A DNA stretch of 64,000 nucleotides, taken from contig BFEA01000030.1 of assembly GCA_003427395.1 (NCBI GenBank), forward strand, positions 369,090 through 433,089, written 5' to 3'. Source of the DNA: Chara braunii. Lineage: Eukaryota > Plantae > Charophyceae. A program made the translations under genes and the position numbers. Positions 27,301 to 62,464 of this stretch are shown here, one piece after another (the first letter of the stretch is position 1; the number at the start of each line of letters is the position of its first letter). The notes beneath the pieces are model-generated. The model ran no database searches. It was not told the origin of the DNA and saw only the letters and a list, made by a program, of their open reading frames with translations.

Positions 27301-30300
27301 CAGGGTAAGTGCACAGATGTCCAGGGATTCGTATGATGTAAGAGGGCCATCCAAATCAGTACCAACAATATCCAAGACTTCCCAAGGACCAAAATACTGA
27401 GGTATTAGTTTCCGATAGATTCTGAATGCCTGTCCTAATTCACTAGCCTTTACCCAGACACGTTCCCCTACCTGAAATGTGGACTGTCGTCTATGTTTGT
27501 TCTCAGAGGCAATCATTGCCTCCTTAGATTTCTGATATGCTCGACAGCCTGCTGCAGCAACCTTTCATACTGGACACCAAACTCTATGGTTCCAGGCATT
27601 GTAACTTGTCGGTTTTCTGGAAGGAGGAAGTCTAGTGCAGATTTAGGCCTCCACCCGAGATGCAGCTCGTTCGGGCTGACGCCGGTGGTGCTGTGTACAG
27701 CGTTGTTATAGAGACTGGCGATGAGAGGCAATTTCTCATCCAGTCATCTTGGCTGGGCTTGATGTAGTGCCTCAGCAAATGCTGCACCACGTGGTTCATC
27801 TGTTCCGCTTGGCCGTTGGCTTCGGGATGATTCCTCGAAGTCATTTGAAGTTGGCTGCCCATTTGTTCTGCGGCCTTCTTCCACATCTCACTGGTGAAAC
27901 AGACATCCCTATCACTAACAATGCTCTTGGGCAGTCCAAAGTCACGCACCCAGTTATCCATAAATAACTTGATGATGTGGTCGGTCTTGGCTGTCTTGGC
28001 TGTTTCTGGTATGGGAAGTAGTCTAGCATGAGTACTTAGTAAACCTGTCCACTATGACGAAGATGTGCATCTTGCCACTCTTGCTGGTCACGAGGGTATC
28101 CATGAAATCCATGGAGGCACTCTGTCCTGGACCCGCAGGAATGGGCAAGGGCTTGCGTAACCCAAACGGAGCTTGAGTTTGCGGCTTATCCCGCTGACTG
28201 AACGCACTTCTTCGTATTATCAAGCATACCAGGCCACCAGAAACGCTGCACCTAGTTACCACTAGTCTTCTTGTAGCCGAAGTGACCAGTTGCATCATGA
28301 CTTTCACCTAAAAATAAAATACGCAAAATCTCACTAGACGGCATACACAGTTTTTTAAACCCTGCCTTCTCAAAAAAGAGGAAACCATCCACCATCACAA
28401 ACTCGTCATATGTAGCCTTGTCGTTAATCTCTAGTTTGTGTATGATGTCCATCATGATGGGATCTTCCTTGTAGGCTCCCACCAACAATCGAGTTACATC
28501 ATCAGATAGGCCAAATTCAGTAATTGGCGCACCTAGGTAGTCTGTCCTACGCGGCAGCGCATCAACAACCTTATTGTATTCTCCCTTCACATAGTCTAGC
28601 TTAGAGTGATACGGATTTATGACTTCAATCCATCGTTTGAGGGCATCAGAGAGAACAGGTTGCGTCTTAGTCCACTTGAGTGGCTGATGGTTAGCTCTCA
28701 AGTAGAAGAACCTTCCCAACAGGTAGTGCCTCCAGTGGACAAGAGCCTTATAAAGGGCATAGAGTTCCTTGTCGTTGGAGGACTTCGCCAACTTTTTAGA
28801 TGGCATCTTCTTACTGATGTACTCGATCGACCTTAACTCCTTCCCTTCCTGCTGGGCCAGCATTGCGCCAATGCCATATTGGCTTGCATCAGTGGTTATG
28901 ATGAATGACTTCTCCGAATTAGGAAGCATGAGAATCTCATGATGCATGAGAGCATACTTCAAACGTTTGAAGGCTCCCTCACGTTCGTTTGTCCATTCCC
29001 ATGATGTGTCAAGGCGTGTTAGATCAGTCAAAGGGGCGACCACCGTACTATAATTCTTGACAAAATTGCGGTAGTAGCCAGTTATCCCTAAGAATAATAT
29101 GACCTCCGTCGCAAACTGAGGTTGTGGTCAGTCACGAATGCTAGCCACCTTCGCATCTTCGGGACTAACCCCATCCGCGGATACTTTATGGCCCAAGTAT
29201 AAGATCTTTGTGTGCCCAAACTCGCATTTTTCTTGCTTGATCTTGTATTTGTGCTATCTAAGGAGGGCTAGCACAAGATCTAAGTGTTGCACATGGTCCT
29301 TGACGGTCTTACTAAGGATGAGAATATCGTCGAGGTGCACGACGATAAACTTATCCAAGTAATCATGAAACACCCTATTCATGGCATGTTGGAACATACC
29401 CCGTGCATTGCGAAGGTTAAAGGGCATCACCACAAACTCGTACAGACCGTACCTAGTCTGAAATGCGGTTTTGTGCTGATCCTTCGGTCTAATGGCAATT
29501 TGATGGTAGTCGGACTTAAGATCTATCTTTGTAAAGTACTTACATCCCTGCACCCTATCCAATAGGTTGTCGATGCGGGCCAGAGGCTCTGCATTTTTGG
29601 TGATGACATTGAGGCCTCTATAATCAATGCACATCCTTAGTGATCCCCCCTTCTTCAGAACGAATAGAACTGGTGAGCCGAAGGGGCAAATACTAGGACA
29701 TATCCAACACTTCTCTGTGAGCTCTTTCAGTTGCTGACGAAGCTCGTCCAACTCGGTCGGAACCATTTTATAGATCCTGCTCTTTGGTGTTTTGCTACTT
29801 GGGATGATTTCTATGGCATGGACAACCTCCCTGTCTACGGCTCTTGAAGGCTCCTCAAACAGATCGAGGTACTTAGCAATGAGAGATTTTATCTCTGGGG
29901 TGATTTAATGGCCTCCCCTTTCCCAGAAATGAATACTAAGTGCATACCCTCCTCTTGGTTCTTTTTATAATAGTTCTGGAACACAGATGCACACATGCAC
30001 CCGTGGGAGTCAGCTAACCTACTAGCTCTATACTTAGCTAGTCTAATGGTCCTCCCATCAGGCAAAACATGCTTGAGCACTTTTCATCCCTGTCAAACTG
30101 GGGTTTGGCAACCTTGGGGTAGTCCATACCTAACAACATTTCAAATGGCAAGTCATCGCTAGTTAGAACGAAATCTAATGATTAAGTTCCCCACCTCCAT
30201 AGGAGAAGGTGCAGACCACGTCCTTGACATAGTCTTTGACCAACAAGGGCTCTTTGTTGCCTAGAGTAGATGCTACAAGTCTACTCAAGCGTTGCACCCG

Positions 30301-33300
30301 GTCCCCTAGGCGCAATCTCTCAATGTAGTCGCCACTTATGAAGTTCCGCATGGAGCCAATGCCTACAAAGGCACCACACTTGCAGTTACCTACACCGACT
30401 TCCACTACGAAATGCTCCCCTCTAGGACGTCTAGATAGTGCCACCCAAAACTCACGAGGGTGTGACGCGCCAACTTCCGGACCTGCGCTACCTTCCCGCC
30501 CCCCCCTGTTTCTCTGTCTTTTTGTCAAATTTTGGATGACCATCCGACGAGGCCTTTTTTTTTTGTATTTTCATGAATGTAATATGCAAGGCCCTCGGAC
30601 CTATTTTTGGAAATTTGTCTTTTTTTGCAGATTGGGAATTACCTGGAAATTACGCGCGCCTTAGCGAGCGCGCTAGGAATTTGGGGTCGACGGTTAGGAA
30701 TTTCGAGATAAGCGGAATCCGACGTGTCCTTTCTTGTGCATGAATATTCGCAACTTCATCTTGGTAAGCTCTGGGAATTTTCGCAGAAATCTGAATAGGC
30801 GTAGGACTTTTCCACGCGCCCGTTTTTCCGCGCGGATATGGTATTTTTCAATTTGAATTAGTCGTAACTGTTTCGGTGTCTTTTTGCCTTCGCGACAGCG
30901 CCGTGCATGTGAGCCTCCCCTCCCCACTTCCCCCGTTGTCCTCGACAATCCCTTCCTCGCGCTCATACTCCTCTCTTTGTAACCGTTTCCCATCTCCCCA
31001 TCACCTTGCACACCTTTTCTCTCCTTCTTGATTGTTTGAATCTTGGTTCCGTTTTGCGCTATTCTTCGCACTCTTCTTCTTCCCACTCTGATCCCCCGCG
31101 CTGAAACAACACGATCCCCTCCCTCTAACCAAAAAGACACGTCGTGTAAGAGGATAATTCTTGATACACGACGATTTTGATTGCCTACAGCTGGGATCCA
31201 AAGGATCGACATGGCTTTCGACGGGCAATCCCTGAGTCTTCTCCTACTTCTCCCTGTTTCAGTCCTAACCCGTCCTAGCATTTATCCTTTTTTCCGCAAC
31301 TATAAATTCCGCAAGCGCTCCCGAAAATCTCTCTCTTGACTCATCATCTCGCTTCCGGGAAGTCGTGGCTAGACGGTATAAAGGAAGGTGCGAGTCGAAA
31401 AGTCTCGACGAGCAGGTTGTAGTCGTGGCGCTCGGCATGTTGGGTCGCACGACGGACTGTGGGATCCGAGCAGGGCCGCGCAGAGGCTAAGTCGGCGGGG
31501 TGATGATCGCTATGGTGGATTGGCACATGAAGGTCGGGATCGTCAGTGCAAGTGAAACGTTCGAGTCGGAAGTGAGTGAGTGCATGGTTCGGGGCCATGG
31601 TGCAATTTTATGACGGTAGTGGTTTCTCTCCTTTCTATTCCAAAGTTGTCTCTTCGAATGTGAGTTTTTGATCGCTCGGTTTTTGAGCCAAGACATCTCT
31701 GGGCAAGATCGCCTGACACTCTGTGATTGCTTTCTACTCATTTTTCCCTCCTAGTCTGTGTCCCTACTCTCCCTTCTTCGGTTGCGACATGTCATAATGG
31801 ATGAATTATGGTGACCTTGTTTCTCTTGCTTCGGTATGTGCATGTAGTGAGCCGTGATTGAAGGTTTTGTTGTAGCATGATTGAACGGATGATTGGTTGA
31901 GCGACTGAATGATCGGGTTGCCTAGATTGACAGACGGATGATGTATGATTAGGATCTGTGCTTACCTTTGTTGCCATGTGGACTGACAGCCCCAACTCGA
32001 CCGGGCGCCAACTTCCCGTGCCCCCGCCGCGCCCCTTCCCGTACAACGAGGAAAGGACACGGGTATGCGAGTGGGACGTACGAGAAGCCGTCGACAAGAT
32101 CGGAGGGCGTTATTACTTTCCTTTCGAAACTTAGTGCTCTGGATTCGTTGATGCGGGTTTTGTTATCATCGATACACACTTTCCGCCATATTCGTTGGTA
32201 TTGCCTTTTTACGAGATGATCGTCGTCCCATGGGCGGCAGTGGAGCCTCATTGGCCTAATACTCTGTGCAGCGATTGTCGCCGCATCGAGCGTTATCAGA
32301 CCAAGGGGTTTCACTATCGCACACACGCCGAGGACGAACATAAGGAAAATGCCACCCGGTTGAGTCCCTCCACGTCGAACTCGGAGTTGTGTAGCGAGCA
32401 CCGACGCGACCTCATCTGAAAACAAGATACCAAGTGTGTACCCGCCCCCTGTCACGCAAAACGAAGGGCGACGGATCGTTGGGAAGTCCAGCGATACTGT
32501 TTGGATTGAATTTCCCATAGCTGCGAGTCCCGCGCACGCTTTTTTTTCCTTAAGACCCGCGCGGCGACGGATCTTTTTCTTACTACAGTCGGACCAACAC
32601 GGGGGATTTCAGTTCCGTCTGTGTCCCCGCACTCAATTTTTCAAAAATCCTTGACACACCCCATCATCGTTGCCTTTCCCGGGCCCCTTCCGCGAACCGC
32701 AACGCTCCGACCGGAAGGTAGCGCAGGGCGTGAGGTTGGTATCGGAGCCAACACGTGTCGGTTCTGACGATTAGTAAGATGAGCTGGCGAAGGGAAGAAC
32801 CACCAACCGACCTAATCGGTTGAGTCCTCCGATTATCCGACAAAGGTCTGCCGAAACTCAACCAGAGTTGCCCATGGCTGATGCTAATGGAGCACCTCCT
32901 CGGGTGATGGTGAGCATCCCCGCCACCTTCCCATTTTACCCCAACCATACCCATTCTGAGGCATCGCTTGAGGCGTACAAGCTCAGGGATATGGCGCAGA
33001 GGACCTCCCTCGCGTCATCACCCTGCTTCTCCGAAACACCGCTCATGATTGGTTTAGAAGACATAGGTGGGTAGATTGGGAAACCTTCAAAAGAGCATTC
33101 CTAGCACGATTTGACGAAGTCAGTGAGGATGCTGCATGGTTCGTATTGAAAACTCGACCGCAAGAACCCGGAGAGTTACTACCCGATTTTGTGGACCGAT
33201 TTTAAACCGCGCTGGACAAATCAGGGTGAGAAGAAAACGCCGCAGGAGATTTGTTCATTGATCATCTCCGTAACCCCGTGCTAAAAGCAAAACTACAAAA

Positions 33301-36300
33301 GAAGGTACCCCCTAAAACAAACCAATTACCAGTCATCATCACTAAAGCACTTGAACTCGACTTGATGGATACGCGCAAATACATAGGTCAGGGGGACGAA
33401 GACATCTCGGATACAATACAGGATGTCACTGCTAAGCGACGATTGTGGCTTAGAGCAGTGGGGCGATTCTACCCTCGCCCCGATCACGACTATCAGGACG
33501 GACCTTCGTTGGATCCCTCTCCCCTCCCTCCTAAGATGGTGCATGTGAACACCGTCATGCCCCAGGCTGCGCCAGTACCCATCGCTAACCTGCATCTAGC
33601 CCAGATGATTCATACCGCCACAACTAAACAATCTGAGTGGATGAACAATCTGATACAGATGCAGACTTCTCAGATGGATCGACTGGAATAGATCATAACG
33701 AAACTGATAAAAGCTAATTCGATTTCTCCGGGTCCCGCTCCTCCTTCGTATCCCATGTTGGCTGCCCCTCCTGCCTCTGCCCAATCACTTACAACTTAGA
33801 ATCAGGGTGTTAATCCAGCAGGAAGAGTCTGCCCAAGCACTTACAACTTAGAATCAAGGGGTCAATCCAGCAGGAAGAGTCGAATGTTACAACTATAAGC
33901 AACCCGGACACTTTGCACGCGACTGCCCCCTGCAAAGACGTAACCAGCCCCCGCCGGCAGCGGCGCCTATCGCCTTGAATCAGGGACGGGTAGCCGCACT
34001 ATTAGAAGCAGCAAGGGAAAGGGGATTTTACCCTCCCCCTGCAGAGCCATCGGCTGAACCCGTCGCGTCCAGATCGGGATCATCTTCAAAAGTGGCCGAT
34101 GTTGTTAATCCTAAAGAGTCCCTCCAACTAGCAGGATTGATCGGAGCAATCCGACCTGGCAAGGATGAATTCAAATGGGTGGAGCGAGGATTAGAGCCCG
34201 GTCCTCAGTTTCGAACAGGGGAGATCGTTGTGCTTCAGATGCTCAAACACTTGGATATATGAGTCCCTGTCCCCGTGGGACATCTACTGACCATATTGGA
34301 AGCTGCGAACGACAGAATTCTGCAGCAATGCCAGAAAAATCAGAAACGCTTTACGTATCAACGCGTTCAAAAAATGTTGAAGAAAAAGATGGACGATGAG
34401 GCAGAAGTAGACCCTCCTTTATCGAAACCAATATCCACCATGCCCGACGCACTCGAGACTGCTCGGGTTGCCACCATTTCATACGCAAAAAAAAAAACAC
34501 TTCGTTCGAGTTCGATCTGTTATGTGGAAAAGTGCGGAGTGCGATTGTGAGGTATGGGGGAAACCGTTCAATGCCCTGGTTAATACAGGATCGTCTGCGG
34601 TAGCGATATCTTTGGACACCGTCCGAAAAACTGGACGATTGAATTCAATCCTTCCCTTACCCAGACGAGACAGCTACGTCTCTGCCGACGAAGAAAGGAT
34701 GAACATAGTAGGGATTATTGAAAACGTAGCCGTTAAGGTAGGACGAGCACATGTCCTGGTCAATGCATTAGTAATCGATGTACAGTCATACTCGGTTCTG
34801 TTGGGGTTGCCTTGGGCTATGGTTGTGGGCGCACGAATACATTTAGACTCCAAGCAGCTCGTCCTTACGCATACTGGAGGAAAGCCTCAAACAATTCCGC
34901 TATGAGTCTCCACTCAATCACCAAGAAAGACCCCCGACCTCCCCCGAATAGGAATGATACAAGTCCCAAGCCCAGAAGAATCGTTCGAAAGCAGTGTCGA
35001 GGACCGACACCTGTCCCTGGATGACGAGTATGATGAGCGAGACTATGACGGACTGCTAGGTAGCATGCCTACTGAAAAGGAATGGAATCAGTTAGTCGAG
35101 CTGTTCGGTCACGAGACCAAAGAAGAGTTCCGGATAAATCCGACTACTACTAGGACATTTGATCTAGAACAGAAGATAGCCAGACAGGCCCTGCATCGCC
35201 TTTATCCCTGCGTGCACTAACAGCAACCCAGATTTCAGTAACATCTTTTCTAGGAGAACCTATCTTGCAAGTTTCGGATATGGTTGACTTCTTGGAACCC
35301 GCTCGGACCCTGTACGAGGGCGTGCTTTCCTTACGAGAAAGATATCAATAAATGGATCAGTACTTGGATTTTTCCGTTTCCCCGCCCAGGCCTCTGCTCA
35401 CGCAAAACGCTGTCTTGCAAGTTTCAGATATGGCTGACTTCTTGGAACCCCCTCTAACCCTGTACGAGGGCGTGCTTTCCTTACGAGAAAGATATCAACA
35501 AATGGATCAGTACTTGGATTTTTCAGTTTCCCTGCCCAGGCCTCTGCTCACGCAAAACGCTGTGATCGCACTAATTAGGTAGGAGGCCGAAGCTCTGATC
35601 AATGATGTTCCCAATCTAATGCAGGAAATGACTGAGCTGACTGGGCTGGGAATAGCCGCCAGCACTGCGGATGTCGAGACCGATGCCAAAACCAAGGAAA
35701 CCGAAATGATAAGCCCGACTGAATCACAAATGCTTGCTACTGTTTTTTCGGTCCGTACTAGCAGCTCCATGTTCTCCAGCGTAGAAGGGAGGCCACCGAG
35801 AGGACTAGGGCAAACCAACGTACGGCTGGATCTTTTCGAACGATAAAAGATCACATTACCTGGTCATGTTCCTCGTGAAATTCGCCAGTCTTTGATCGAT
35901 GTATTGCATGGATATGCAAAGGTGTTGAGTGTGCATGATTGTCATATTGGGTTGTTCATTGTGATCGAACATGTGATCCTCACAGGGGATCATCCGATAA
36001 TTAGTTGCGCTCCCTATCAGTACTCTCCGACACAACGACGAGATGCGTTCGAGAAGGTGAAGGAGTTTGAAGCTAATGGGTGGATCGAACCTGCCATAGG
36101 ACCATGGTCCTTCCCGGTGGTGATTGTACCGAAAAAGGCAGGAGGAATTCGTATATGCATTGATTATCGGAAGTTGAATGATATTACGATTAAGGACGTA
36201 TACCCCCTCCCCCGGATTGATGAATTATTCGATGCTATTGGTGGTGCTCGATTTTTAAGTAAGTTTGATGTTCGTCATGGGTTCCACCATCTCCCAGTTC

Positions 36301-39300
36301 GAAAGGAAGATCGCCCGAAGATGGCCTTCGTTCTTTTCGAAGGGACTTGGCAATGGGTTCGATGCTCGATGGGATCTGCAACGCCCCAGCCACGTTTCAG
36401 CGCGAGATGAACATGACCTTTCAGAACTTCGTGCGAAAAACGAGGCTGGCGTAGAGTATTATAAATTATTGTGTGATTGTATACATGGATGATATCCTTG
36501 TGTATTCGAGTTCCTACGAAGGGCACGTACAACACATTGAATGGATGCTGCACGCATTGAAGGATGGTGGATTTAAGGTGGCCCTCGAGAAATGCCAGTT
36601 TTTCCTCACAAGGATTTCCTTTTTCGGCCACGTGGTTACGGACAAGGGGTTGCAACCGGAACCGCAGAAGTTAGCTGCAGTAAAAGACGCGCCGGTGCCG
36701 ACGTCAGTTACACAAGTACGCGCTTTTTTGGGACTAGCCTCGTACTATCGGAGGTTTATCAAGGGATTTGCAGTAATCGAGGGACCACTCACGAACCTGC
36801 TGAAAAAAAAGCAGCCGTTGATTTGGACCCCGCAGTGCGATCAGGCCGTTCAAGAACCTAAGGCGACTTTGATTTCGGCTCCGGTCCTTATAAGATCGGA
36901 CCCGGAGAAGCCTTTTGTCCTCGTCACCGATTGGCAGCCCGAGGCGATCTCAACAATCTTGGCCCAGGTGGGACCTGATGGCTTGGAACACGTGTAGAAT
37001 ATGCGTCTAAATCAGTACCTTCCTGCAAGAGGAATTACTCCGCTCCAACGGGAGAATGCTACGCGGCCTTGTGGGGAATCAGTCACTTTCGGGCTTACTT
37101 ATATGGCCGGAAGTTCAGATTAGTGATTGATCATGAACCACTGTTGGCCCTGAAGAAGTCAAAGGACTACTCGAGTATGATCGGACGATGGGCTACCACG
37201 TTGCAGAGCATGGAATTTGACATTGGTCATCGGAAGCACGAAAGACACGACAACGCGGACGGGCTGACACAGTTGCATCGACCCGGCAAGGTACCCAAGA
37301 ATGAGGAAGTGATGTTGTGGCACGATCCAGAGCCAAAACACGAGCCCCAGTACGGTGAGGTGGAAATCCTTCTGAAGGATGAAGTGGACACGAGATCTCT
37401 CTCTCTCTCTCTCTTCTTTCCCCAAACCATGACGACCCCTTCTTCTTCTGCTCCCACCCCATCGATTCTTTCTCCTTCTCCGCATTTGAAAATTTTCGCC
37501 GATCTTCCGGATAAATTTTGTTATTTTTGCACGTGTATCTCACGGGTGTATGGGGTAGACATCGACCGATTCCTCAATACCCATCTAGATACAAAAGAGA
37601 TCCTAACTGACAACGGGTCCGAATTCAAGGCCGAGGTAGAGGAATTACTGATGCGTCGTGGCGTTGCTCTCCGACACACTGCTCCCCATGTCTCACAGTC
37701 TAATGGGTTGGCCGAGAACGCTAACCGCATGATTAAGACCGCTCTTCGCCGGAACCTAGTGGCCAACAACACGCGTCCTTGGCCCGAGATAGTGTACCAA
37801 ATCATCAAGAACCATCGAGCGACCCCTCATGAATCTACTGGATTCACCCCTTTTCAGCTACGAACGAATAGTATCCCATGTGTTGACAATCGGGGTGCCA
37901 CGGGAAACATCGAGAACGGGGGAAGGGACACACGGTCGGCCCTTAAGGCTAGGGCCAAACGCTATGCGGAGTTAATGGAAAAGGCTATCCTTAGATTAGC
38001 CCAAAAAAGGCAGAGAATGACCGAATTGGCCCACGGTAGGCAGGTCCGTAGTTACGAGGCCCAGAATGGGAATGCAAGCCCACAACACCAGTATAAATTA
38101 GGGGACCTAGTGCAGGTACGCAAATGTGCACATGATCGGAAACTCTCTCCCAAGTTCTCTGGCTGCTTCCGCGTAGTGGAACTCGGCCCTAACGGAGCCA
38201 ATACTGTACGCATCGCGCCTGAGACCAGCGCCAGCCATAGCTCTCTTCCCATTGTCCGCCATGCCTCCTACCTTCGCCCTCTCCCGCCCTCTGAAGATCA
38301 TGCCTCCCCTTCGTCTTCTTCCTTTACCCCAGACGAGGATCTTGCTTCCTCTCCTTTTTCTGGCAATACTTCTCCTCGGTCTTCGCCATGAGCTTCGCCA
38401 TCGAACCGGCTCTTCCTCCATAGCTTCTTCAGCCTCGACCTTCATTACAGTTTCGCCAAGTCATGCATCCTCGTCTCAGTCCTGATCTTTTCCGATTCGC
38501 ACAGTTGTTCAGTCATCGGGCCTGGTACGCGGCCGTGGAGGTAACGATTTCAACGGAGTTGGGATCGACTGTCATCTTGGTGGAAGCCTCGGCGTTCGAG
38601 CGTTTTTCTCGGCCTACTCAGAGCGGCGTAACGGTGATCGTTGCTTTCAGTGGCGATCTATGCACTATTGGCATCCAGCGGCGTGACGCGGTGGTCACAA
38701 GCCTCTACGAGTGGGGGAAGGCGTTGGTAGCAGATTGGCAGCAGCGGCTGGCTCGACCAGGCCGACAGGTGGTGGGAACCGACTGTACTGACACCTTTTC
38801 TCTTCAAACTCGTAGCACTGATCCCCCTGCTCGACCGCTACCTCCTCTTCGCCCTTACCCTTTGCGGAGATGAATCGTTTCTCTACCTTTCTCTCTCCCT
38901 TCCGATCTTCCAACTCGCTGGCCATCTTGGGCCGATCCCCTTCTAACTTTGGAGATGCGCCCCGCTCCGATCCCTCCCTTCCATCCTTCTTATATTTGCA
39001 AGTGGACTGAGTTCGCGATAGTCAGCGTGTGCATGCTAACGGTGAAGCGGACACCGAAGACAACTTAGTTGGTATCCTCTGTGGGGAGATCGCCGAAGGA
39101 GGACGAGCGACTGTCGCCTACGAGATCCTCACGTTCCTATCTCAGCTTGTGGACGATTTACCAACAAGCATCATCTCCTTCAATCCGAGCGATCCTAGCC
39201 AAGTCGGGCCTGTCACTGTGAAGAGAACGTTGACACCAACGGTAACTTGGGCAAATTGTACAGAGGATTTCGGTCAGTACTTGAGCGATCACGATCCCAC

Positions 39301-42300
39301 GACTTGGTGTTATCTAGACCTGAACGAGCTCGCATCGGATAATTCCAATCTGAACGAGTTCGGGAACGCTCATCTGGCACACGGAGAGGTGTCGTCGGAC
39401 GACGACCCAGGTCGCACAGCCATTGTGGGGCTGTCAGCGGAAGAAGAGTCGGAGGCCCGATCAACGACGAAGCAAGAAGAGGAGGCATCAGCACCCGAGC
39501 CCCAGGAAGCTCCTCCGGCCCAAGCACCAGTCGCACGAGGAGGATATGCCCTGAACCCCGAAGTCCCCTCCGACGCCGCCAGGCGTCACGATGGCGCGGA
39601 ATCCTCCCGCCGGCGCCGCCGCTCTCGCTCCCCATCTCCTTCCTCCCCCTCCCCCTCCGCGCTTCGTCCCCGTCCTTCTCCCCGCACGGGCGCTCCGTCC
39701 TCGTCCCATCTACCGCCGCCCTCTTGATTATCTTTCCTTTTCTCCTCTCCCCCATATCGAATTCCCCCTAACCTATCGCATATTCGCCAACTAGCTCTTT
39801 TGCCACCACTTCGTTGTGCGACTCCTGTGCACAGTCTTTCCACACCGCCCCCCCTCCTTCCCGCTCAACATCCTCCTTTTCAGTGTCGCATGGAGGCAAT
39901 ACAACCATATGCAATTGTATTGCATCATCTCCGGGACTTTCCCCGCAGTAGAGGACTATGAGTCTCTACGCGATAATATCCTCCGGGCCATCCCAACCCT
40001 ATACCCCGACTATCTCCTCTCCCTCTCTCAACCCAACCATCGATTCCCTCGAGCGCACCGAATCGTCCACTTCGTCGTTCTTGGTGACGAAGCATCCGAT
40101 TTCTTTCCTCCTCTCCCAAATGAATGGCCCATGCCACTCCATCACCCTCTCCTCGTCGACTATCGCCGGTCGGATTTCCAATGATGAAGCAGAACTAGGC
40201 GAGATTTGGTGGACCATGATGGCGTCACCTGGACGACCTCCGCCAATCGAAGGAGCAAGGAGTTGCACATGACAGGGCTGGATAGTAGAGAATCTGCAAG
40301 CCAACACGAATCGTAACGATCCTGCAATTAAAGTTGGCGTCAACAAGGGATTCTGGCCCGATCTGTTGCTGATACGAAATCTTGTCTGTTCTGATACGCT
40401 CGGTTCCTCGTTCATCCCTTCGACCCCTTTTCCCTCCTCCGACATTTAAATTGGCTTTCGTGCATGCAATCAGGAGATCGCATAATTTTGGAAGCCCCTG
40501 AGCGTCACATATGTGACGCGCCAACTTCCGGACATGCGCTACCTTCCCCCTCCCCCTTGTTTCTCTGTCTTTTTGTCAAATTTTGGATGACCATCCGACG
40601 AGGCCTCTTTTTTGTATTTTCATGAATGTAATATGCAAGGCCCTCGGACCAATTTTTGGAAATTTGTCTTTTTTTGCAGATTGGGAATTACCTGGAAATT
40701 ACACGCGCCTTAGCGAGCGCGCTAGGAATTTGGGTCGACGGTTAGGAATTTCGGAATAAGCGGGATCCTACGTGTCCTTTCTTGTGCATGAATATTCACA
40801 ACTTCGTCTTGGGAAGCTTTGGGAATTTTCGCAGAAATCTGAATAGGCGTAGGACTTTTCCACGCGCCCGTTTTTCCGCGCGGATATGGTATTTTTCAAT
40901 TTGAATTAGTCGTANGGGAATTTTCGCAGAAATCTGAATAGGCGTAGGACTTTTCCACGCGCCCGTTTTTCCGCGCGGATATGGTATTTTTCAATTTGAA
41001 TTAGTCGTAATTGTTTCGGTGCCTTTTTGCCTTCGCGACAGCGCCATGCATGCGAGCCTCCCCTCCCCGCTTCCCCCGCTGTCCTCGACACTCCCTTCCT
41101 CGCGCTCATAGTCCTCCTCTCTCTGTAACCGTTTCCCATCTCCCCATCGCCTTGCACGCCTTTTCTCTCCTTCTTGATCGTTTGAATCTTGGTTCCGTTT
41201 CGCGCTATTCTTCGCGCTCTTCTTCCCGCTCTGATCCGCTGCGCTGAAACACCAGGTCGATCCCCTCCCTCTAGCGAAAGAGACACGCCGTGTAAGAGGA
41301 GAATTCCTGATACACGACGATTCTGATTGGCTACAGCTGGGATCCAAAGGATCGACATGGCTTTCGACGGTGAATCGCTGAGTCTTCTCCTACTTCTCCC
41401 TGTTTCAGTCCTAACCCTTCCCAACATCTATCATTCTTTCCACAACTCTAAATTCCGCAAGTGCTCCCGGAAATCTCTCTCTCGACTCATCAGCCCGCTT
41501 CCGGGAAGTCGTGGGTAGATGGTATGAAGGAAGGTGCGAGTTGAAAAGTCCCGACGAGCGGGCTATAGCCTTGGCGCTCGGCATGTTGGGTCGCCCGATG
41601 GACTGTGGGATCCGAGCAGGGCCGCGTAGAGGCTAAGTCGACGGGGTGACGATCGCTATGGTGGATTGGCACGTGACGACCGGGATCGTCAGTGCAAGTG
41701 AGACGTTCGAGTCGGAAGTGGGTGAGTGCATGGTCCGGGGCCATGGTGGAATTTTATGACGGTAGTGGTTTCTCTCCTTTCTATTCCAAAGTTGTATCTT
41801 CGAATGTGAGTTTTTGATTGCTCGGTTTTTTAGCCAAGACATCTCTGGGCAAGATCGCCTGATACTCTGTGATTGCTTTCTACTCGTTTCTCCCTCCTAG
41901 TCTGTGTCCCTACTCTCCCTTCTCCGGTCGCTACATGTCATAATGGATGAATTATGGTGACCTTGTTTCTCTCGCTTCGATACGTGCATGTAGTGAGCCG
42001 TGATTGGAGGTTTTGTTGTAGCATGATTGAACGGATGATTGGTTGAGCGACTGAATGATCGGGTTGCCTGGATTGACAGACGGATGATGTATGATTAGGA
42101 TATGTGCTTACCTTTGTTGCCATGTGGACTGACGGCCCCAACTCGACCGGGCGCCAACTTCCCGTGCCCCCGCCGTGCCCCTTCCTGTACAACGAGGAAA
42201 GGACACAGGTATGCGAGTGGGACGTACGAGAAGCCGTCGCCAAGATCGGAGGGCGTTATTACTTTCCTCTCGAAACTCAGTGCTCTGGATTCGTTGATGT

Positions 42301-45300
42301 GGGTTTTGTTATCATCGATACACACTTTCCGCCATATTCGTTGTTATTGCCTTTTAACGAGCTGATCGTCGTCCCATGGGCGGCAGTGGAGCCTCATTGG
42401 CCTAATACTCTGTGCAGCGATTGTCGCCTCATCGAGCGTTATCAGACCAAGAGGTTTCACTATCGCACACACGGCGAGGACGAACATAAGGAAAAGGCCA
42501 CTCGATTGAGGCCCTCCACGTCGGACTCGGAGTTGTGTAGCGAGCGCCGACGCGACCTCATCCGAAAACGAGATACCACGTGTGTACCCGCCCCCTTTCA
42601 CGCAAAACGAAGGGCGACAGCTCGTTGGGAAGTCCAGCGATACTTTTTGGACTGAATTTCCCATAGCTGCGAGTCCCGCACTTCAGCATGAGTAGAAGCA
42701 GCTACAACTTCTACTGGCTAGATGTGTTTTCGTGGGTCGTGCTCGTAGAAGCACCTCACTGGGCGAAAGATCGCTCAAAACCACCTTTGGGAGGATTCTT
42801 CTGAGAAACTTTCGTGTTCTTGCATCTAAACTGTTGATGGCCATATTAGCCGCAGTTGATGCAAGCTCCTCGCCAGTAGCGGTCTCTCCACACATCCTGA
42901 TCCAGGCCAGCCCTTACCCAAGTCGGAGTCTTGTTTGAGTTTTGAGCCTGACCCTGGCTCTTTTGCTGGCCGCCCTTGCCACAACCAACAGCCTTTCCTT
43001 TTGTCACTGCAGCGAGGTTCCCACCCTCTCCAATCTCCTCACTGCCTAACTCTTTTTCTTCCACAACACCAGAGAGGTCATCGATCTCGGTTTGATTCCC
43101 ATCGGAATCAACCATCATCAAACGACCACCCTTCCCCTTCCACTCTTGCGAAACCTTCATCTTCCTACCATCCGTTACAGGTTGATGAGCTCCTCTTATC
43201 TTAGCCTCTAAATCTAAGGCCTTCTTGCTAAACGAGTCAAGAGTGTGCAATTCGATGCTGCTCTCACTGACCATTAAGTTCTTGATGTCTGTGGGAAGAC
43301 ATCTTAGGAACATGGTCAAGAGGACCTGTGGATCATAGCAGACACCCGGGACGCAAATGAGTTTTTCAACGGCTGTGGTGAACTCTCGTGCCGACTTGTA
43401 CTTTTTAGTATCAAGCCGGGCCAACGCGTCAGTGGCCTGCTGGGCCTGTTGAGGGTTGTGCCAGCGCGTCTCAACCAACTCCATGAAACTCTCTAAGGTA
43501 TGGGTATGTGCCCAATCATTCATTCGCCTGCCGAAACCCTTTGACATTATATTACATCTAGCCATCTCGTTGCCGAACCCTCAAGATATGAGGCGACAGT
43601 GATCACCTCTTCCTCACGCAACATCCTCTTTGCCCTAACCCATACTGCAACCGTTCTCAACCAGGTGTCAAGTGCCTCATCCTTCTTATCACCAGAGAAG
43701 GTCTAAGGGGGTTTCAGTGGAGTCTTGGGGTACCAAGGCTACTGTGGTCCCATCTGTGGGACCGGCTGCTGCCCCGTAGTTGCAGCTGATGGACTTGAGG
43801 ATGAAGAAGCAATAGTCTGTGCTGCTGTTGCTGACGTACCACCTGGTATGATATCAAACTGTGGAACAAAAGGGCCTGTCATCGTCGGTAATGGAACTGC
43901 CAATGGAAAAACTGCCGCTAGGTGTGGAGGGAAGTGGTCCTCCCCTCCCCTCCACGGCCTTCAGTATTTGGTCAAGGGTTGACTGGATGTCATCCAGTCT
44001 ACTGTCAAGGTACTCATTTAGTACCAGCAGATTCGCCCGAACGATCTTTCCTGCATCATCCAGGCTGGAATCATTCAACCCTTCTAATGCAGCTTTGTCT
44101 GGTGCTCTGCTCTCTGATCTAGCTTTTCGATTTCTAATCTTATCTTCTCTGTCGGTAGCATCCCTAATTTGCTTCTCTAACTGTAAGCAGAGTAGCTCTA
44201 CTCGCTGGAGTGCTAACTCCTCCCTAGTGGGCGGAGGTGGCTGGCTGTACTGCGAGCCTGCCATGATGCCATCTGACTGGAGGATGGTTCTACACCCCAC
44301 TAGATGAGACAAAGGACATAGCGAAGGATCCTGAGGTCGCTGCAGAAGTTGCCATAGCTTCAGCACTAGACGTTGCTGCCGCTAACACACGTTCCGCAGC
44401 TGCTGCTGCCTCCTTAGCTGTCCGCAAACGCTGGGCCCTTGCTTCGGCCCGGAACCTCCTCTCCTCCCCAGGTAGCAGAACCTGAAACACTACCAGAATC
44501 CTGTGCGTATCCCGACGTGTCTGCCTCCTATCATCAGCTGTACCTTCCCCACTATCTATACCCCTCATCAGCTAAGCAGATCACTATCTGCACTAGTGCC
44601 CTCACTGGAGCCTACGACAACATGTCTCACCGATTTGTAAAATAAAGAAAAATAAACATTCGGCAAGTGGTGTCGACAATGTATAGACTGACTAGGCAAA
44701 TGATCTACTCCTACTTTAATTAGCTCTGTCACAACAACTATATATAGAACAGGCAATGGTAGACTACTACTGTTTTACTCTGTAGCTGTCTATTAGGTGT
44801 ACGGGAGTCACAAAAATGAGCTATAAATGCACTATGGGCCAAGGTACGTTTCAAAGTGCAGTTCGGGCGATGTATACAACCCAGCTTTCTGGCCAGGTAA
44901 GGTGCCCGAAGTGCAATTGCAAACTGTATCTTGCCCCATAGTGCAATTGTAACTCGTTTTTCAACGGTTTTTGTGACTCTACTGAAGTTAGCCCAAAAAT
45001 AAATCAATTGTGCAGATGTATGCAGAAATCGAAATAATATGGAATGTGTTCGAACACCAATTGGAACCTTCCCTCCCCTGTATCCAACGATCTTGATTGC
45101 ATCATCAAGCAGCGGTGTCTATGGTGTGCGCAACAGCCCACCCCTGTGCCCAGGAATCCGCTTATGACCAGTTCTGCCCCTTTATTTATCCTCACGTGCA
45201 ACGAGCCTTATGAGGGGATTTGACCCCTCGGCAGCGCTGGGAAAGGCCTTGCCCACGCTAAGTGAAGTTGGGCCTGCCAATATGTGCCAAGGCCTGGGTG

Positions 45301-48300
45301 GAGGCCAGTGTGATCACCCTAAAGGGGTCGTATATGTGCGAGGAATCGGGCCCTTAACAGACATGCACATGTTCTGGGCAGAGGCCTTCAGCAAGCCTTG
45401 TGCCCGCCCTAAGTGAAGGCGGGCCTGAATATTCACAAGAGGCCAAGATTTGACATTTTTCCATATGTGGGTATCAGACAGTTGCAGCATGCCAGTTGGT
45501 TACAGAGCAACGTGAGCCTCTCCAGGCTCTTTCCGGAAGTTGCAGCCGCAACGGGCAGTTGAGCCCAGGGGCCCGTACAGTTAAGGGTGTGTGCTTTCAG
45601 AGGCCGACACATCATACAACAGCCACAGACCAATGAGATTGCAGCATTGTCGGCACACAGTGGCTGTGAGCCAATGAGATCACAGCGAACATTTGGAGGC
45701 CCGTGGGCTGCCTGGACGTGCCCAACTGTAAAGGGCCCAGGCCCGTAACTGCAACTGGGCCTGGACGCAGGCATTGTGGCCCGACTGGAAGCTACTGGAT
45801 GCTCGCCCAGCCAGGCCCAGAAGCAGCAGAGGCTGAGCTCACTTTCCATATAGGAAAGTCAGCATCGCTGGGCGGGGCATTCTGGCCTAGGCAGGCAATG
45901 CAGCCATGTTGCTGCGTTGCAACTTCGTGTTTTGCACGAAGCTGCCGGCTGGGTCGCGCGCACGGGCGCTGGGGTGTGAGGTGCACTGCTGGGCAGTGGA
46001 GGCACGGCAGCCATAGCCGGGCTGCTGGGCGCAGGTCTGGATGGCGATGGTGGTCTTTGGGTGTTGAGAATGCACACTGTGGGAAGTCAGGGGTGATGAG
46101 GAGAGACGAGATACATACCTGGTGCATGAGGGAGGTCAGCTATGGTGTTGACGTCATGTACATCGGTCTTCAAGGTCGAAGTGAGCCTGTTGCGTAAACG
46201 CTGGTGTAGTAGGATAGGCGAGTAGTCTAGGCTGGGCGCTGGGCGCCAGACAGAGTAGGAGCAACATTGGATACGGTGTTGGTGTTGCCTGAGGGTTTGG
46301 ACATTGGCTCGTGAGTTCATTGTATTGCTCTTATCTGGATGGAATCTCGGTGCATTTGCGCTCTCTGCTTGTACATGATTACTTGGACATCCGTGTGATT
46401 TCGCAACTTGGTTTTCTGTATATCGCTCTTGCTCATATTCCTTGCACTTACTTCCAATGACCTAGCTGATCAAGAGGCAATTTAAGGACAGCCCCCCAAG
46501 TCCTCAGGAATTATTCAACGTCGCAGACAGGGCAACAATCACAGCCAGGTATCACATTCCCGCCAGAGGTTCTTTATAGACGGTCTGGTACATGTCTCGC
46601 ATAGGACTGGCCAGTGCACGTTCCGTCTACAGCGCAGCAAGAGCTCAAAGGCACTGCCCTCTCCTGCCAGATGCGCCATTAGGAAGAATGTCGACTCTCA
46701 AGGTAGAGTGCTCTGTTATGATCCTGGCCAATTTCGAAGTACACATTCATGAGAAAGTACAATGCCGTCAAATTGCAAAACGAATGAATGAACTTGAGAG
46801 GAGAGAGAGGGAAAGAAGAAGAAGAAGAAGAAAGAAAGAAGGAGAAGATGATGTACACCAACAGAGACCAATGATGATGCTCTTCTTCGCCAACCACTCT
46901 CCTCCTCCTTATCTCCTCCTTTCTTATTTACACAAGAAATAATAATAATAATGTTGAATGGCTGAACCAGAATCAATGTCCGAATCCCTCCTCTACTGCA
47001 GGTATCACATGGAGTCCACCATAGCCATGGCCGCCCTTCTTCCTCTTCCTCCAAGGCCGAGGCTATGGCGGACTACCAGGGCATCGCCCTGCTGTGCAAA
47101 GGACAACACAAACAAGCTATGGCTGTTCTAGCTCAGGCCGCCATGCCTGACTCTGCCTCGAAGCTTCTTGGTGCAGCTCTACCCCAACTGGGGCCTTCCT
47201 GCTGCAGTGCCCACCAAGGTGATGAAGATGGCAACCACCATAGCCAGGTAAGACCTCTGGCTCTCCCCCTTCCTAGTCCTGGTCTTCTTCCTCCTCCTGT
47301 CCTTGCTCCTTCCCCAGCAGTGCAGCTCTGCGCTAGCGCTGCTCCAGCCAGCGCTCCAATCAGTGTGTCGCCAAACTTGCACACCGACAATGAGGAGCAT
47401 TTTGCTCCTCCTGGAGATATTTCGGCCTGCTTGCGTCTTGGCGAGTGACTTCCTAGGCTGCACGGCCTCCAGGCAACCGCTACCTCCTCCCTTTCGGAGG
47501 GAAATATCACTGCAGACTCTGATATTGCCCGTACAGGCCCTAAACTCAGACTGGTTGGACTGGTACCCGCCTAGACCTAGCCTACAACTACTGGGCCTCT
47601 AAAAATGCAAACTTTTGTCTTCTTCTGCTCGGTCTCGAGTATCCAACACATCTACCTCTACTTGGTGTGGACCGGCCTACCTCCAACTTGAGTGTTTTCC
47701 GCTGCTCTAAGTGTCACGGGCCTCTTTCCCCGCCACTTGAGTGTTTTCCCCGCTGCAACCCTCAATGTCATGGCCACAGGTAAGTACTGCCCCTTCGGGC
47801 CTTCTGAACGAACAAGTGCCCTTGTGGGTCACACACACACTCAAGCCGACAAGCACTCAGACAGGCATGCAGACCAGCAAGCATGCACCCACACAGACTT
47901 CGAAAACTCAGCAACAAGCGGGAAACTCAGCAAGGCATACATTCCATGAGCAAAACTCAGAAATCAGCTGTGTGTCTCACTCCGTGTTTGGCAGGTCATT
48001 ACAGCTCACGACTCCTGAACCAGAAGTCGACACTCAAGTTGAGCTCACTTCCTCACGGTAAGAAGAGATTGAGATGGGAAGATAAGGATGGGAACAACGT
48101 ACCTGAAGATAACTGCCCCCAACCACAGATTTCTCACCAATTGAGCCGAAGTGCATTTTTATGACCGGTCATAGCCTCGGTACCACACACAATGCAATGG
48201 AGTGCCACCTCAGCCAAAATGCAATGTCAGCATTTTCTCATCATTCCGCATACACCCGCTGTCGCCACAGCTCTCACGCTGTCGCCACAGCCTAGCCGGC

Positions 48301-51300
48301 ACCACTGACAGTTGAACTGAGGCTTCCACGTGGCATGAGTCGTGGACCAGGGAAGCACTGTTAAGTCCATATAAGGCAAGATCAGCGACGGAGAAGCGGA
48401 GCGATCAATCAAAACGAACCTCATTCCCCCTATATGACATGCCTTCGACGGGTTATAAAAGTGAACCTGATCGGTCCGCAATAGCACCCTTCGCACACCT
48501 GCATCATAGTAGGGACCGTCCTCGTATGTGATCGAACACAAGTTTCCTAGCCGGCACCACTGACAGTTAAACTGAGGCTTCCACGTGGCATGAGCCGTGG
48601 ACCAGGGAAGCACCGTTAAGTCCGTATAAGGCAAGATCAGCGACGGAGAAGCGGAGCGATCAATCAAAACGAACCTCATTCCCCCTATATGACACACCTT
48701 TGATGGGTTATAAAAGTGAACCCGATCGGTCTGTGATTGCGGCCTTCACACATTCACATCACAGTAGGGGTCGTCCTCGTCTGTGATTGGAAACGGAGGA
48801 AGGTTGCTATGGCAGATCAATGAAAGGCTCGAGCACGGGCAGTTACACGTGCTCACGTTCAGAGTGGCGAACCTCGACTCCATTCAAGTCTCAACTTGTC
48901 CCGGACCACCCAATCCCACTGTCAAAATGCAAGCGAATAGTCGTGACGACTCCAACCAAAATTGTCACCTTGTCAAAACGGCAATGGCCGGCAGGCAGGG
49001 AGATGGAGTGGAGCGACTGAGTCCCCACACACCATGTCCCTGGGCGCTCGCCAGACGCCCGGGTGGACTGAGAAATCGACACGTGGCGCTTGTGCGCGGG
49101 GAGGAAAATAAAGTCGACGACGATCTCGCACGTGCGCTAAGCACGGGGGCCGGCAGTTAGTCGGGGAACAGAGGGCATCAGCACACATGCACGCAGGCAG
49201 ACGTCCAAGACCCAATTACCCCAGGGCCGCACTCATGTGCGCAAATGCAACAAAGACAATTACCCAGTCTTTCCACATTCATACATCCACAGACCTTCTG
49301 ACGGCAAAGTATTCAGCATCCATAGACACTCACAACCAAAGCATGCACGCGCTTGAGTATCCACGCTTAGTCTTTAGCGCACACAACCAATGGACAAAGC
49401 AGCGATGGAGAAGAAGCGAGTCCCTCGCTATTCAAAAATCACAACAATGCTGGCACTCCGTGTGCACAGCCACCAAACCCGACCGAACGCAAGCCAGCCA
49501 TAGTCATAAGGCCCTGCCGCTGGCGGCATTCCCGTCTCCAACACCGCTCAGTCCCTCCGACTGCCTTACCCCGAGTCTACTGCTAATTCCACCCCACCCG
49601 TCCTTGGGCACATCTAGCCTGTTCGGCGCCGCAGTCTTCGTGTGCAGCTCGTGCAGCATTGCAGCCGAGATCAAAGAGTTGGAGAGGAAAGGGCGGCGCA
49701 AATTTATAGTGTGCCGCAGCGAACCAGCGTGCAATGCGGGTAGCGAGGGGTGTAGATGAGGAGGAGAGAAGAGGAAGGTTCCAGAAGACTGAAGAAGGCG
49801 GGATGATCAAAATTTTCGTTCACTTGGGGTGGTCGTTTAAGCCGCGCACGTAAGTCCGCCCTTGCGGCTTGATCCGACCAACCCAACTGACCACCAGTCA
49901 ACGGCGACGAAGAATCAAGGAGGGGATCAGACTAAGGGTCTGGCGGAAGACGAACAGGTGCGCGGAAACGAGGACAGCAAGAAAGGGAGTTGGCGTGCAT
50001 GCACAAAGCGGGAAGCGAGCTTGCGTGGCAAGCAAGAATTCAAAAATGGTCCCGTGTGTGCCTGCTGATGCAAAGAAAAATTAAAAATGCAGTCAACCAA
50101 AATTCATAACCGTTTCTTGAAATTACCGCGCGGTCGTTAGTCGGCTGCGCAAGGACAAGGGCAAATCCAAAAGATGCATGCAGATGCCCCTCCGAAATTC
50201 AAAACGGACCCCATTTCTGTGGCCATCCAAGATTCGTACTTCGGGGCTTACTCCGGGGTTTAATATGAAGGGTACGTAGAGCTCCTAGGTACGGACCTTG
50301 GCTTATCACAAGCAGTGATGGGAGCTGATTGTCAAGCACGCCCTCCCCACCAGCTTTCGACATAGGCCGAGAGGAATACCTGACTATGGGCCCTGGTGTA
50401 GTCACGGGCCGAAAGGAATAAGTGAGTACGGGCCTGAAGAGAGAGAGAGATGAAAGATGTGACTATGGGCTCAGAGGAATACAAGCTTGGAGAAATACAT
50501 GCCAATCACGGGCCGGATGACGATGTCTTCACCCTGGGAAACGGGGGAGCGAAGGAACGTTGATCCTAACCCCTGAATTCAGTGGGGGTCAGATCGACGT
50601 CCTGAATGCAGCAAGGGCTCTTGACCTTTGCATCCCTGTTCCCTTTCCCACCTCTTGTTAATCTTCAAGCTGGCCCATGATCGCATGATTGAAAGGTGAC
50701 CAAAGAATCAACGACATTCTGCCTTTTTGGCTGAGAACAAAACTGAAATGCCTGGGAGAAGTCTAGATGCCTCGTACTTTTTTCAAGGCGATTCCGACAG
50801 AAGAAGTCCGCACCTCCACCAAGCTAGAAGCAACGACGAGGATTGGAGTGATTGCAGCCATATGTGAACCCTTGGGGCAGCGGGACATCTTCTGTGTACT
50901 AACAATGTCAATTGGAAACTGCGAGGAAGTCTTGCGGCAGTTTTGAGGATCCAAAATCCAGAAGAACTCTCATGGGCACTTGCCAAAACGGCTGGGAGGG
51001 AAGCCCAAACGGAGGCCCTCCTTCCACACGGGATGTATGTGACGGTGACTAAGGACGACATACAGTACAAGGGTCAAATTGCGAATGCGCCCATACGGGA
51101 TGGCGGAGTTCACTACCCTTGGGATGCCATGATCTGAGACGTCCGAGCCTATATTGTTCTGCTGGGAATTCTGTGGCAGGTGGCAATCAGAGCACGTTGC
51201 ATTTCAACAGTGGACAAATGGTTCTGACCGTTACCCACCCCTCCCCTCAAACAATCCCAATGCGGATTGCAATCCGGATGAGGATGCGCATCAATCTCCT

Positions 51301-60100: not shown

Positions 60101-62464
60101 GGCCCAGAGCTGTTTGGCTTTCTGACAACTCAGGCGGCAGTGCTCCACGTCTTCTACCCTGCCCTCCTGACAGATTGCACAGAGTTCCTTTAGCGGTGAG
60201 CGTGAAAGTAAGTTGCGTCTATTGTTTAGTCATTTATTTACCGGCAATGCTAGGTGTACCACTAGCCATTGGAAGCTTCTTATTTTGGTGGATGTGCTGG
60301 CATTAATATCGTTCCATGAAACAACTCTTGTGCGTTCTGCTGGCTGGTTGAATTGCGTTTCCCATCTTTGGCTAATTATTTGAGTTAAGGGGGAGGATCT
60401 CATTCTTAGTGTGTAGCCTAACTTCGTGGTGTATTCTAGTATGTTAACTCTTTTCTCGATATTAAGTCTCCATGTTCTTAGCTTCCATACCCACTCTGCT
60501 GGATCTAGTGCTAGGTCTGCTATATTGGTTTGGGGGCTGTAGATCCGGCGCTCTCCGGTCTCCACTACTCTTACTTTCCGTAGAGTGCTTTCTAGTAGGG
60601 TTACTCCTCCTGTAGGATTATTGAGCAAGAGACTTGTCGTTGCTCCTGGATTCTCCACGGTGTAAATGTCGCAGGTTAGCCAGTTATGTCTAGGGCCTTC
60701 TCTAGTGCAGAAGAGGTAGGCCTCGGAGGGGGGGTTATCTGTCTTTCTTGTTGCCCATTCCCCTGGGTTCCAGCCGACTGAACCTTTTAGCAACTCTGAC
60801 CATCTTTCCGGAATTGAGTTTCTGATCCTATTCAGGTTTTCTTGCAAATTTTGACAGCCTTTTATGGAGTTCCTTGATTCCTCGACTGTTTTCCACCTTC
60901 TTTCCTCGTTCTGCCAGAGGTGCTTGATCTGCCATACTCCTTTTTCGAGCCAGGAGCCCCATTTAGCATATTTTGCTGTTAGTGTCCAGGGTTTGCCTTG
61001 TGGGTCTGGCAACCATTGGTTGCAGAAAAGCGGTTGCCTTAGGACCTCTTCTTTGATTGTCGGTTCCCTTACTTTGGCCGGTAAGATTTCTCTCCATGTT
61101 TTCATAAGTTGGTGCCAGAAGTCCTCCTTTTGGTCGTTCTCCTGACCTTCTCGCTGTGTCTCTCTGGGAGTGCCCTTCATTGCCCAAGATTTGGCCATGA
61201 TCCATAATAACCCTCTCATATTGTTAGGGGTTTTGAGTTTGACTAGGTTGTTTATTCTCTATAGGCCCAGCTCGTTCCATGGAAGGTTGTGGTCAGTTAT
61301 TAGTTTGAGGATCCATTTGGATTGTAGCGCTTTGATCTGTGTCTCAGGGTCGAGGATCCTCAACCCGCCTTGTGATTTCTTCATAATGATGTATTTCCAT
61401 GCTACCTTGGAGATGAAGTGGGCTTTGGAGGGATCTCCAGACAAGAGGTAGGCTGCAGTGTGACGAACCATTTTTCTGTAATTGCGCGACTTTCTGCGCG
61501 AAGCTGCCTGGGGAAATGAGACGGGTTGGATGGGTGAGTTGCGGAAAGATGGGTCAGGCGGGCAAATTGCATGGACGTCCTCGTTTCTTTTCGCTGTCTG
61601 CTGGGAGTTGTCGGATCGGTGTCAGAAGAATCCCGTACCAATGGTTGGGTAGCCGCGCCTTGTCGAGCGCGAGAAATAACTGTACCATAGCTTCTTTCTT
61701 GTTCTGCTGTGAGCACTGGGAATTTTGGTGCGATCATCGCGCAGGAATATCGTTTTTGAATTTTCAACTGATGACGAGCCCTCACGGGCTCGCGGAATTG
61801 TTTTTCTTTTCTACTTTTTCGGAATTTTCTTTTGCAATTAGGACTTAAGCTAGGAATTTAGGTACTTTGAATTTTGTTGTGCCGCGCTTGTGCGCATTTT
61901 GCTGCGCTGGGAACTAGGCTCTGACTGGATCGCGCCCTTAATCATGTGTAGTTGTCGTTTTTGGTGGGCGCGATTGTAACTGTATCTTTCTTCTTTCTTG
62001 GTTTCCTCATGTTTACCCGCCTTCTCCTTCTTCCTCGCTGCGCATACGCTGTTCTGATTGGTCGAAGCGCCTGCATGACCGGATCGATGCCTGGAGCGTG
62101 GCTACGACCCCCACGCCGCGGCTTGGCCATGCAGACGTAGGCACTTCCTCTCTTCTCCTCTTGTCCACCTGGGCTTAATCCCGTACCTTTCGCGCAGGCA
62201 TGCATGCTATAAATTTCGCAAGCGCGATTAGTTTGCTCTCTAAGAATTTCGAGGTTAGCGCGATCAGTGAGGGTCGGCTAACGAGCAAGTCTGGAAGGTG
62301 AGTGAGTGCGAGAGTTGGGCGATCCGACGAGCTGATGCTGAGTATGGGGGGTTGACGTGCGGGCCGCGATGGACTGGCGCACGGGCGAACCTGGCTTGCA
62401 TATTCGAACTAAGCGGGGTGACAACTCTGTGTGGATGCAAGGCGACGGACTGCCAACATCAGGG

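Follow-up and report, generated by a model that had tools for sequence, protein, structure and literature searches.

A candidate accessory protein gene within the long terminal repeats of a Ty3/gypsy retrotransposon of Chara braunii

The element and its repeat-borne reading frame

We analysed a stretch of 64,000 nucleotides from Chara braunii (contig BFEA01000030.1 of assembly GCA_003427395.1, positions 369,090 to 433,089 of the forward strand; hereafter the window), which holds a decayed Ty3/gypsy retrotransposon with an open reading frame (ORF) inside its long terminal repeats (LTRs). The features of the element are collected in Table 1. In the 3' repeat the frame is open over all its codons, from ATG to TGA, while its twin in the 5' repeat is interrupted at codons 53 and 148. 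An initial annotation of the locus had described an intact 3' frame of 177 amino acids and a 5' copy broken by stop codons alone, and both points are borne out. The distance of about 680 nt that it gave from the TATA position to the ORF also agrees with our count, since the TATA-like motif lies 675 nt before the ATG of the 5' copy. The open 3' copy is not evidence by itself, because about half of simulated copies stay open by chance: 53% of 20000 simulations with 14 random substitutions left the frame open. Its intact state is partly luck.

The direct repeats 30461-32533 and 40512-42679 match at about 94% identity. Both are long and begin with TG, and the 5' repeat is followed by a primer-binding site which we take to be of the initiator-tRNA(Met) type. 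Of the two LTRs of about 2.2 kb in the initial annotation, the 5' LTR measures 2276 bp, a length that follows from the start of the primer site at 32737, and the 3' LTR is incomplete and has lost its last ~200 bp. The duplication at the N in the 3' LTR is probably an assembly artefact. No target-site duplication was seen around the element, whose 3' LTR ends early at 42679. Between the repeats, the plus strand encodes gag (zf-CCHC), protease, reverse transcriptase (RT), RNase H and an integrase-like frame, in that order; the integrase assignment is weak (rve, E 0.01; MLVIN_C, E 0.08). The window element has neither LTRs ending in CA nor a polypurine tract abutting the 3' LTR, as Ty3/gypsy elements should, but the right ends of other family copies do finish in CA. 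The counterpart of the TATA-like motif in the 3' LTR, at 41445-41454, bears a substitution. The family is abundant, as 8593 contigs of one genomic run align to 2.6 kb of it, a depth that we do not take as copy number. Three protein-like sense frames stand between pol and the 3' LTR, the second of which (39011-39727) is acidic, its end being rich in Arg, Ser and Pro; together with the ORF, the accessory genes of the element may number four.

Table 1. Features of the retrotransposon and of the related sequence in the window
Feature	Position	Strand	Remarks
5' LTR, 2276 bp	30461..32736	+	Ends at the primer site, without the terminal CA attachment sequence
TATA-like motif, putative function	31300..31308	+	Same motif at 62207 (+) and 49701-49709 (-)
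5' LTR copy of the ORF	31976..32509	+	Stops at 32132 and 32417; no indel
Primer-binding site	32737..32749	+	After the 5' repeat; many genomic contigs cover it
Decayed gag-protease-RT-RNase H-integrase region	32779..38391	+	Ty3/gypsy domain order
Three more sense-strand frames, after pol and before the 3' LTR	38390..40184	+	38424-38873, 39011-39727, 39795-40184; no Pfam match
Right-end attachment 11-mer (40499-40509), TA and LTR start	40499..40519	.	40502-40519 is a perfect 18-bp palindrome, at the expected polypurine tract site
3' LTR, cut short at 42679	40512..42679	+	95-nt duplication at N at 40915
Intact LTR-borne ORF copy, 177 aa	42122..42655	+	Cys/aromatic core ~19-103, Arg/Lys-rich tail 104-177
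Block conserved at nucleotide level beyond coding need, codons 23-37	42188..42232 (5' copy 32042-32086)	+	Candidate cis-element overlapping the ORF
Distant core homolog, tandem 255-bp units	48290..48814	-	~0.9 kb downstream of a TATA-like motif

Selection on the frame and its relatives

Between the two LTR copies of the ORF we counted 4 synonymous and 24 non-synonymous changes, a non-synonymous rate relative to the synonymous one (dN/dS) of 1.75. This comparison was rejected as a test of function, since it covers decay after insertion only. The divergence of the two copies is neutral, the decay of a dead insertion; most of the listed ORF differences are private to one LTR copy, where reads and contigs agree with the other. 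More informative is the comparison with contig L001, which encodes the related protein P0002 and whose frame is 67% identical to the 3' copy. Here the ratio of the uncorrected proportions (pN/pS) is 0.28 (bootstrap 0.21-0.36), and dN/dS is about 0.11 with dS near saturation. The differences fall 42/35/97 on the three codon positions, in core and tail alike. Four of the other five frames give a pN/pS of 1.2-1.6, and the fifth, an antisense frame with the same third positions, has a value of 0.43 but is full of stops. No frameshifting indel was found in 534 ORF columns, against nine in 612 flank columns of equal identity, so that frameshifts are not as common in the frame as around it; the single ORF indel is one of 6 nt. 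Among the best-supported 12 of 32 RNA rows and 12 of 31 genomic rows, a non-random sample, no indel lies in the ORF. Between subfamilies, dN/dS is thus far from the value near 1 that had been named as a sign against a functional frame. Judged by these substitution patterns, the gene is very probably real and under purifying selection.

Relatives of the protein are few. A phmmer search of 1.84 billion representatives gave three matches, and word-seeded searches confirmed 1 of 27, 2 of 7270 and 3 of 967 candidates. Five distinct related proteins were found in all, two of them C. braunii gene models at about 70% identity, and at least one metagenome stretch, the contig L001 that encodes P0002, was confirmed (1 of 603, in 32 of 64 collection parts). 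The window protein (P0001) shares its start, MWT, with P0002 and P0007, and P0008 (53%) matches it in length and at the C-terminal end. None of 17 candidate stretches in viral contigs and none of 68 in prokaryote genomes proved related, and no host homolog was found in the phmmer or word-seeded protein searches. The two gene models, CBR_g19774 and CBR_g17916 (P0003 and P0007), fuse the ORF to other exons, one of them to DCP1, and these fusions are probably annotation artefacts from intronic LTRs. On L001, a copy of the domain from a second subfamily, close to P0004, lies in the opposite orientation at 2602-2940 (-). The first LTR was inserted just downstream of this reverse copy, whose leader resembles window positions 62296-62422.

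The core of the protein is kept down to about 30% identity and is common to three distant subfamilies, including the copy at 48 kb in the window. The initial annotation had aligned the ORF with this otherwise dissimilar DNA, and the alignment withstood tblastn (E 3e-5 within the window), shuffling (in each of six pairings, no shuffle out of 5000 scored as high, z 8-16) and an independent profile. Built without the 48-kb sequence, this profile scores its two units significantly (E 3.6e-9 and 4.4e-7). Each of these units is 85 codons long and lies on the minus strand, and unit 1 has a stop. The leader of the 48-kb copy gave no blastn match to the main LTR, and the LTR limits of this copy are not fixed. 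The spacing C-x22-C-x43/42-CxxC that had been proposed holds for P0001 and for the first 48-kb unit, but unit 2 has lost the first Cys. Likewise, the description as a four-cysteine domain needs to be narrowed: the first Cys and the CxxC pair are common to three subfamilies, the second Cys to two, and the P0004 subfamily lacks it, P0004 itself having a His beside the missing position.

Residues 19-103 include invariant aromatic and proline residues, while the tail, residues 104-177, holds 19 K/R in 74 residues. Searches of Pfam, NCBIfam, PHROGs, sequences of the PDB and the ESM Atlas gave no family match of use for the ORF protein: NCBIfam returned nothing, PDB sequences had no match at E 10, and in the Atlas there was no feature match for the core or for P0008, with structure matches at a template modelling (TM) score of at most 0.35 on a model with a predicted local distance difference test (pLDDT) of 0.35. 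Pfam HEWD (E 0.14) and two PHROGs (E 0.1-0.16), each matched by 1 of 10 members, were rejected as noise. No sequence profile of the VANC anti-silencing factors or of viral cysteine-rich suppressors matched, and none of ten aligned members matched the Pfam families of plant-virus cysteine-rich or AC2-type proteins at E up to 10. In the family libraries searched we thus found no known domain of a transposable element (TE) or of a host. By these comparisons the product appears to belong to no recognised family. The initial annotation had suggested an LTR-borne accessory protein of no recognised domain, and placement, selection and family searches support this description of the ORF. Zinc binding is a candidate property, proposed at the level of the motif.

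Within the ORF, codons 23-37 stand out at the nucleotide level. Their silent sites are conserved, with identical codons at 13 of 15 positions, compared with 34 of 97 elsewhere (scan-corrected permutation p 0.01), and the same block is the deepest bin in all four genomic runs. This suggests a cis-element overlapping the gene. Rfam has no match in 30400-33000, and the fold predicted for the block in the window is not the one predicted for it in L001. The block of L001 contains a palindrome that is presumably G-box-like.

Placement in the LTR, permuted ends and surroundings

In L001, the ORF stands between the TATA-like motif and the conserved LTR tail, after which come 10 bp that repeat the LTR start in inverted form, and then foreign DNA. 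Neither a primer site nor gag follows the LTR end in this contig, which supports the presence of the ORF in a 3' or solo LTR, and with it the earlier suggestion that the gene would persist in solo LTRs. In genomic run X1, 41 contigs depart from the reference at 32738 with the attachment letters and continue into varied flanks (agreement 0.53), a result seen among 24 of 2713 loose-end rows listed. The ORF therefore lies inside the LTR. By its position downstream of the TATA-like motif, it would belong to the repeat/5'-unique (R/U5) part. The L001 tail also contains an AT-rich insertion of about 530 bp (1980-2510).

The same comparisons revealed permuted LTR ends, at 32727-32749 and 40499-40519 in the window and at 2535-2556 in L001. 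The 5' LTR runs directly into the primer site without a CA end, and at least one contig spans this junction without extra letters (X4 record 31). The extra attachment sequence at the right ends of other copies equals window positions 40499-40509, just upstream of the 3' LTR. These ends would fit a joining of complementary DNA (cDNA) ends and a cutting of the palindrome before integration. The accessible part of a study on foamy-virus integrase reports cleavage of a palindromic LTR-LTR junction, also by the integrase of human immunodeficiency virus (HIV) (PMC2884000), and the palindrome 40502-40519 has the form of such a circle junction. It differs in that it is fixed here in an integrated element, whose 5' LTR lacks the right attachment end. 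No description of permuted ends of this kind was found in the literature searched; an S. osmophilus preprint considered as a source was, in the part available, not relevant. A further palindrome, at 32746-32761 just after the primer site, becomes a perfect 14-mer through a common variant at 32750 and could act as a signal for RNA dimerisation. The conserved ORF block of L001 has the 8-nt core of this palindrome as well.

Transcription was followed in three oligo-dT RNA runs, of each of which 6-13% was examined (9-17 million records). On the 3' LTR we found 16, 353 (run X9) and 46 reads. In X9 the ORF bins are among those with the highest coverage, about two thirds of the first mates map to the minus strand, and 7 of 13 listed ORF variants are synonymous, among 40 of 493 RNA variant rows listed. 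Low-level RNA from related copies is thereby shown, whereas promoter activity and translation are not established by these data. No transcript start or end was seen in the RNA runs. Since there are 20-21 ATGs between the TATA-like motif and the ORF, a splice or an internal start is needed, and the T-rich stretch 41756-42115, where coverage is poor, may be an intron.

As regards the surroundings, the element is nested in another, minus-strand gypsy-like element (28252-30460 and 42680-44400), with a gag-like part to the right, protease-like and RNase H parts to the left and sequence lost at the 42680 junction. An LTR-like sequence at 61459-63050 has the same seven starting letters and a 19-nt TATA block in common with the main LTR, and is interrupted near 63.05 kb, ahead of any domain match. 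At 7169-11419 (-) lies a long RT frame of 918 aa with an upstream frame, probably a long interspersed nuclear element. A tRNA-Glu(CTC) gene is found at 23924-23996 (-).

Possible roles of the protein and comparison with known systems

How might such a gene serve its element? Our preferred reading, which we regard as plausible and somewhat short of probable, is that the product is an accessory regulator which binds metal, works in the nucleus and targets in trans the LTR of its own element. The LTR promoter would transcribe the ORF as first cistron, from 5', 3' and solo LTRs alike, and a splice or internal start would bypass the upstream ATGs. The first Cys and the CxxC pair, together with a fourth Cys or His, would be zinc ligands, and the Arg/Lys tail would give nuclear import and affinity for nucleic acids. 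The regulator would then raise or protect transcription of its own LTR. There is a precedent in plants, where LTR elements encode nuclear accessory proteins such as Grande gene23 (PMC7264820).

Several observations weigh against this proposal. The RNA reads are few, only 6 of 415 reach at least 95% identity, about one third of the X9 depth comes from the opposite strand, and some reads may stem from read-through of host genes. In L001 the ATGs between motif and start number 26, and the RNA runs showed no spliced joint across the leader. On the side of selection, the estimate comes from one subfamily pair, the search that found L001 was made with a protein and so favours an open frame, the frame of L001 has a stop five codons before the end, and single genomic contigs with gaps within the ORF exist (e.g. 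X1 record 8). As to the protein, neither P0004 nor the L001 reverse copy has the second Cys, and the 48-kb copy does not share the basic tail. AlphaFold did not recover a fold for the full protein or the core (10-row alignments, pLDDT 40.5 and 40.7), and neither AlphaFold nor Pfam, NCBIfam, PHROGs, PDB or the Atlas gave structural or family support for zinc or DNA binding.

The strongest alternative, which we consider rather unlikely, is that the protein acts on the RNA or cDNA of the element, by Rev/Rem-like export, by packaging, or as an end-joining helper binding the 45-nt block or the LTR tail. The silent-site conservation of codons 23-37 and their depth in the genomic runs would suit such a target, as would the Arg-rich tail. 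The permuted ends point in the same direction, and a strong-stop DNA of about 1.4 kb would be needed if the TATA call is right. However, the block has no common predicted fold and no Rfam match, and the palindrome in its L001 version may be a DNA site for a host factor.

A role as a general suppressor of host RNA silencing, or as another host-directed effector that is not specific for the own LTR, seems less likely again. In size, Cys-rich core and basic stretch the protein resembles geminivirus AC2/TrAP and the cysteine-rich proteins of plant viruses, which are transactivators or silencing suppressors, but the likeness is one of composition only, and both the Pfam viral families and the viral contigs lacked a match. 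TE accessory proteins are described as prone to host protein interactions in the accessible part of PMC13547354. The same part presents the VANC21-type anti-silencing proteins of MuDR, which like the regulator proposed here are TE-encoded factors thought to protect their own family. In contrast to the Chara protein, they belong to DNA transposons and are related to MAIN, and no Pfam similarity to them was found.

It is improbable that the frame is a relic, ancestrally selected or captured from the host, now untranslated and conserved through cis-elements. Of the copies seen as DNA, all but one carry a stop or have lost a Cys, the two LTR copies diverge neutrally and the upstream ATGs are many. 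Yet any retrotransposon gene should decay neutrally once it is inserted, gag-pol is equally decayed, the third-position bias spans the whole frame with its tail, and a host homolog was not found. Very improbable is a reading of the 2.2-kb repeat as the 5' leader of tandem elements, with an ORF like Ogre ORF1: no polypurine tract precedes 40512, 30461-40509 is bounded by an 8-bp inverted repeat and the right copy is incomplete and without target-site duplication, but in L001 and the 41 X1 contigs the attachment sequence leads into foreign flanks instead of primer site and gag, and the ORF lies upstream of the primer site.

The preferred reading of an LTR-encoded regulator can be set beside known systems. 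HIV nef is likewise a gene that overlaps an LTR. The initial annotation had drawn on nef and on sag of mouse mammary tumour virus, an analogy which holds for the location within the LTR but not for the part occupied, since the ORF would lie in R/U5 rather than in the 3'-unique (U3) part upstream of the promoter, by the position of the TATA-like motif. According to the accessible part of PMC9147501, sag is a protein-coding accessory gene in the LTR, duplicated with it, and overlaps U3; we found no sequence relation to it. The extra ORFs of plant Ty3/gypsy elements (Grande gene23, RIRE2, Retand, env-like, the Ogre 5' extra ORF) are also conserved family-wide, of unknown function and with a proposed nuclear role, but are found within the internal part of the element, for the most part between pol and the 3' LTR (PMC7264820), and PMC6431247, in its accessible part, locates the extra ORFs of plant LTR elements there as well. 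The Chara ORF lies in both repeats, upstream of the primer site, and is thus outside the pol to 3' LTR interval of the aORF-3S/3R type. A REXdb survey counted extra ORFs of at least 250 codons, as stated in the part available (PMC6317226), so that one of 177 codons would have been left out. In the titles and abstracts searched, neither an ORF inside a gypsy LTR nor a Chara element of this kind was described; the genome paper of Chara with its supplements, the REXdb supplements and Repbase were outside this search and may describe the family.

The protein family is new and in an unusual place. Doubtful as a whole is the wider picture of a gypsy clade of streptophyte algae with a new metal-binding regulator in the transcribed half of the LTR, solo LTRs as trans-acting regulator genes, permuted ends and integration from a palindromic circle junction. 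LTRs of retrotransposons are treated as non-coding, and surveys of extra ORFs cover the internal region or apply length cut-offs that miss 177 codons. Through this family, segments of TE origin in host gene models can be understood, for instance in the C. braunii model with the domain joined to DCP1. As a small new family from a close algal relative of land plants, it offers candidates for tests of transactivation or silencing suppression. A gene under selection in an LTR would be copied twice per insertion and outlast the formation of solo LTRs, and would thus form a large, dispersed reservoir of one TE regulator in a genome rich in the family.

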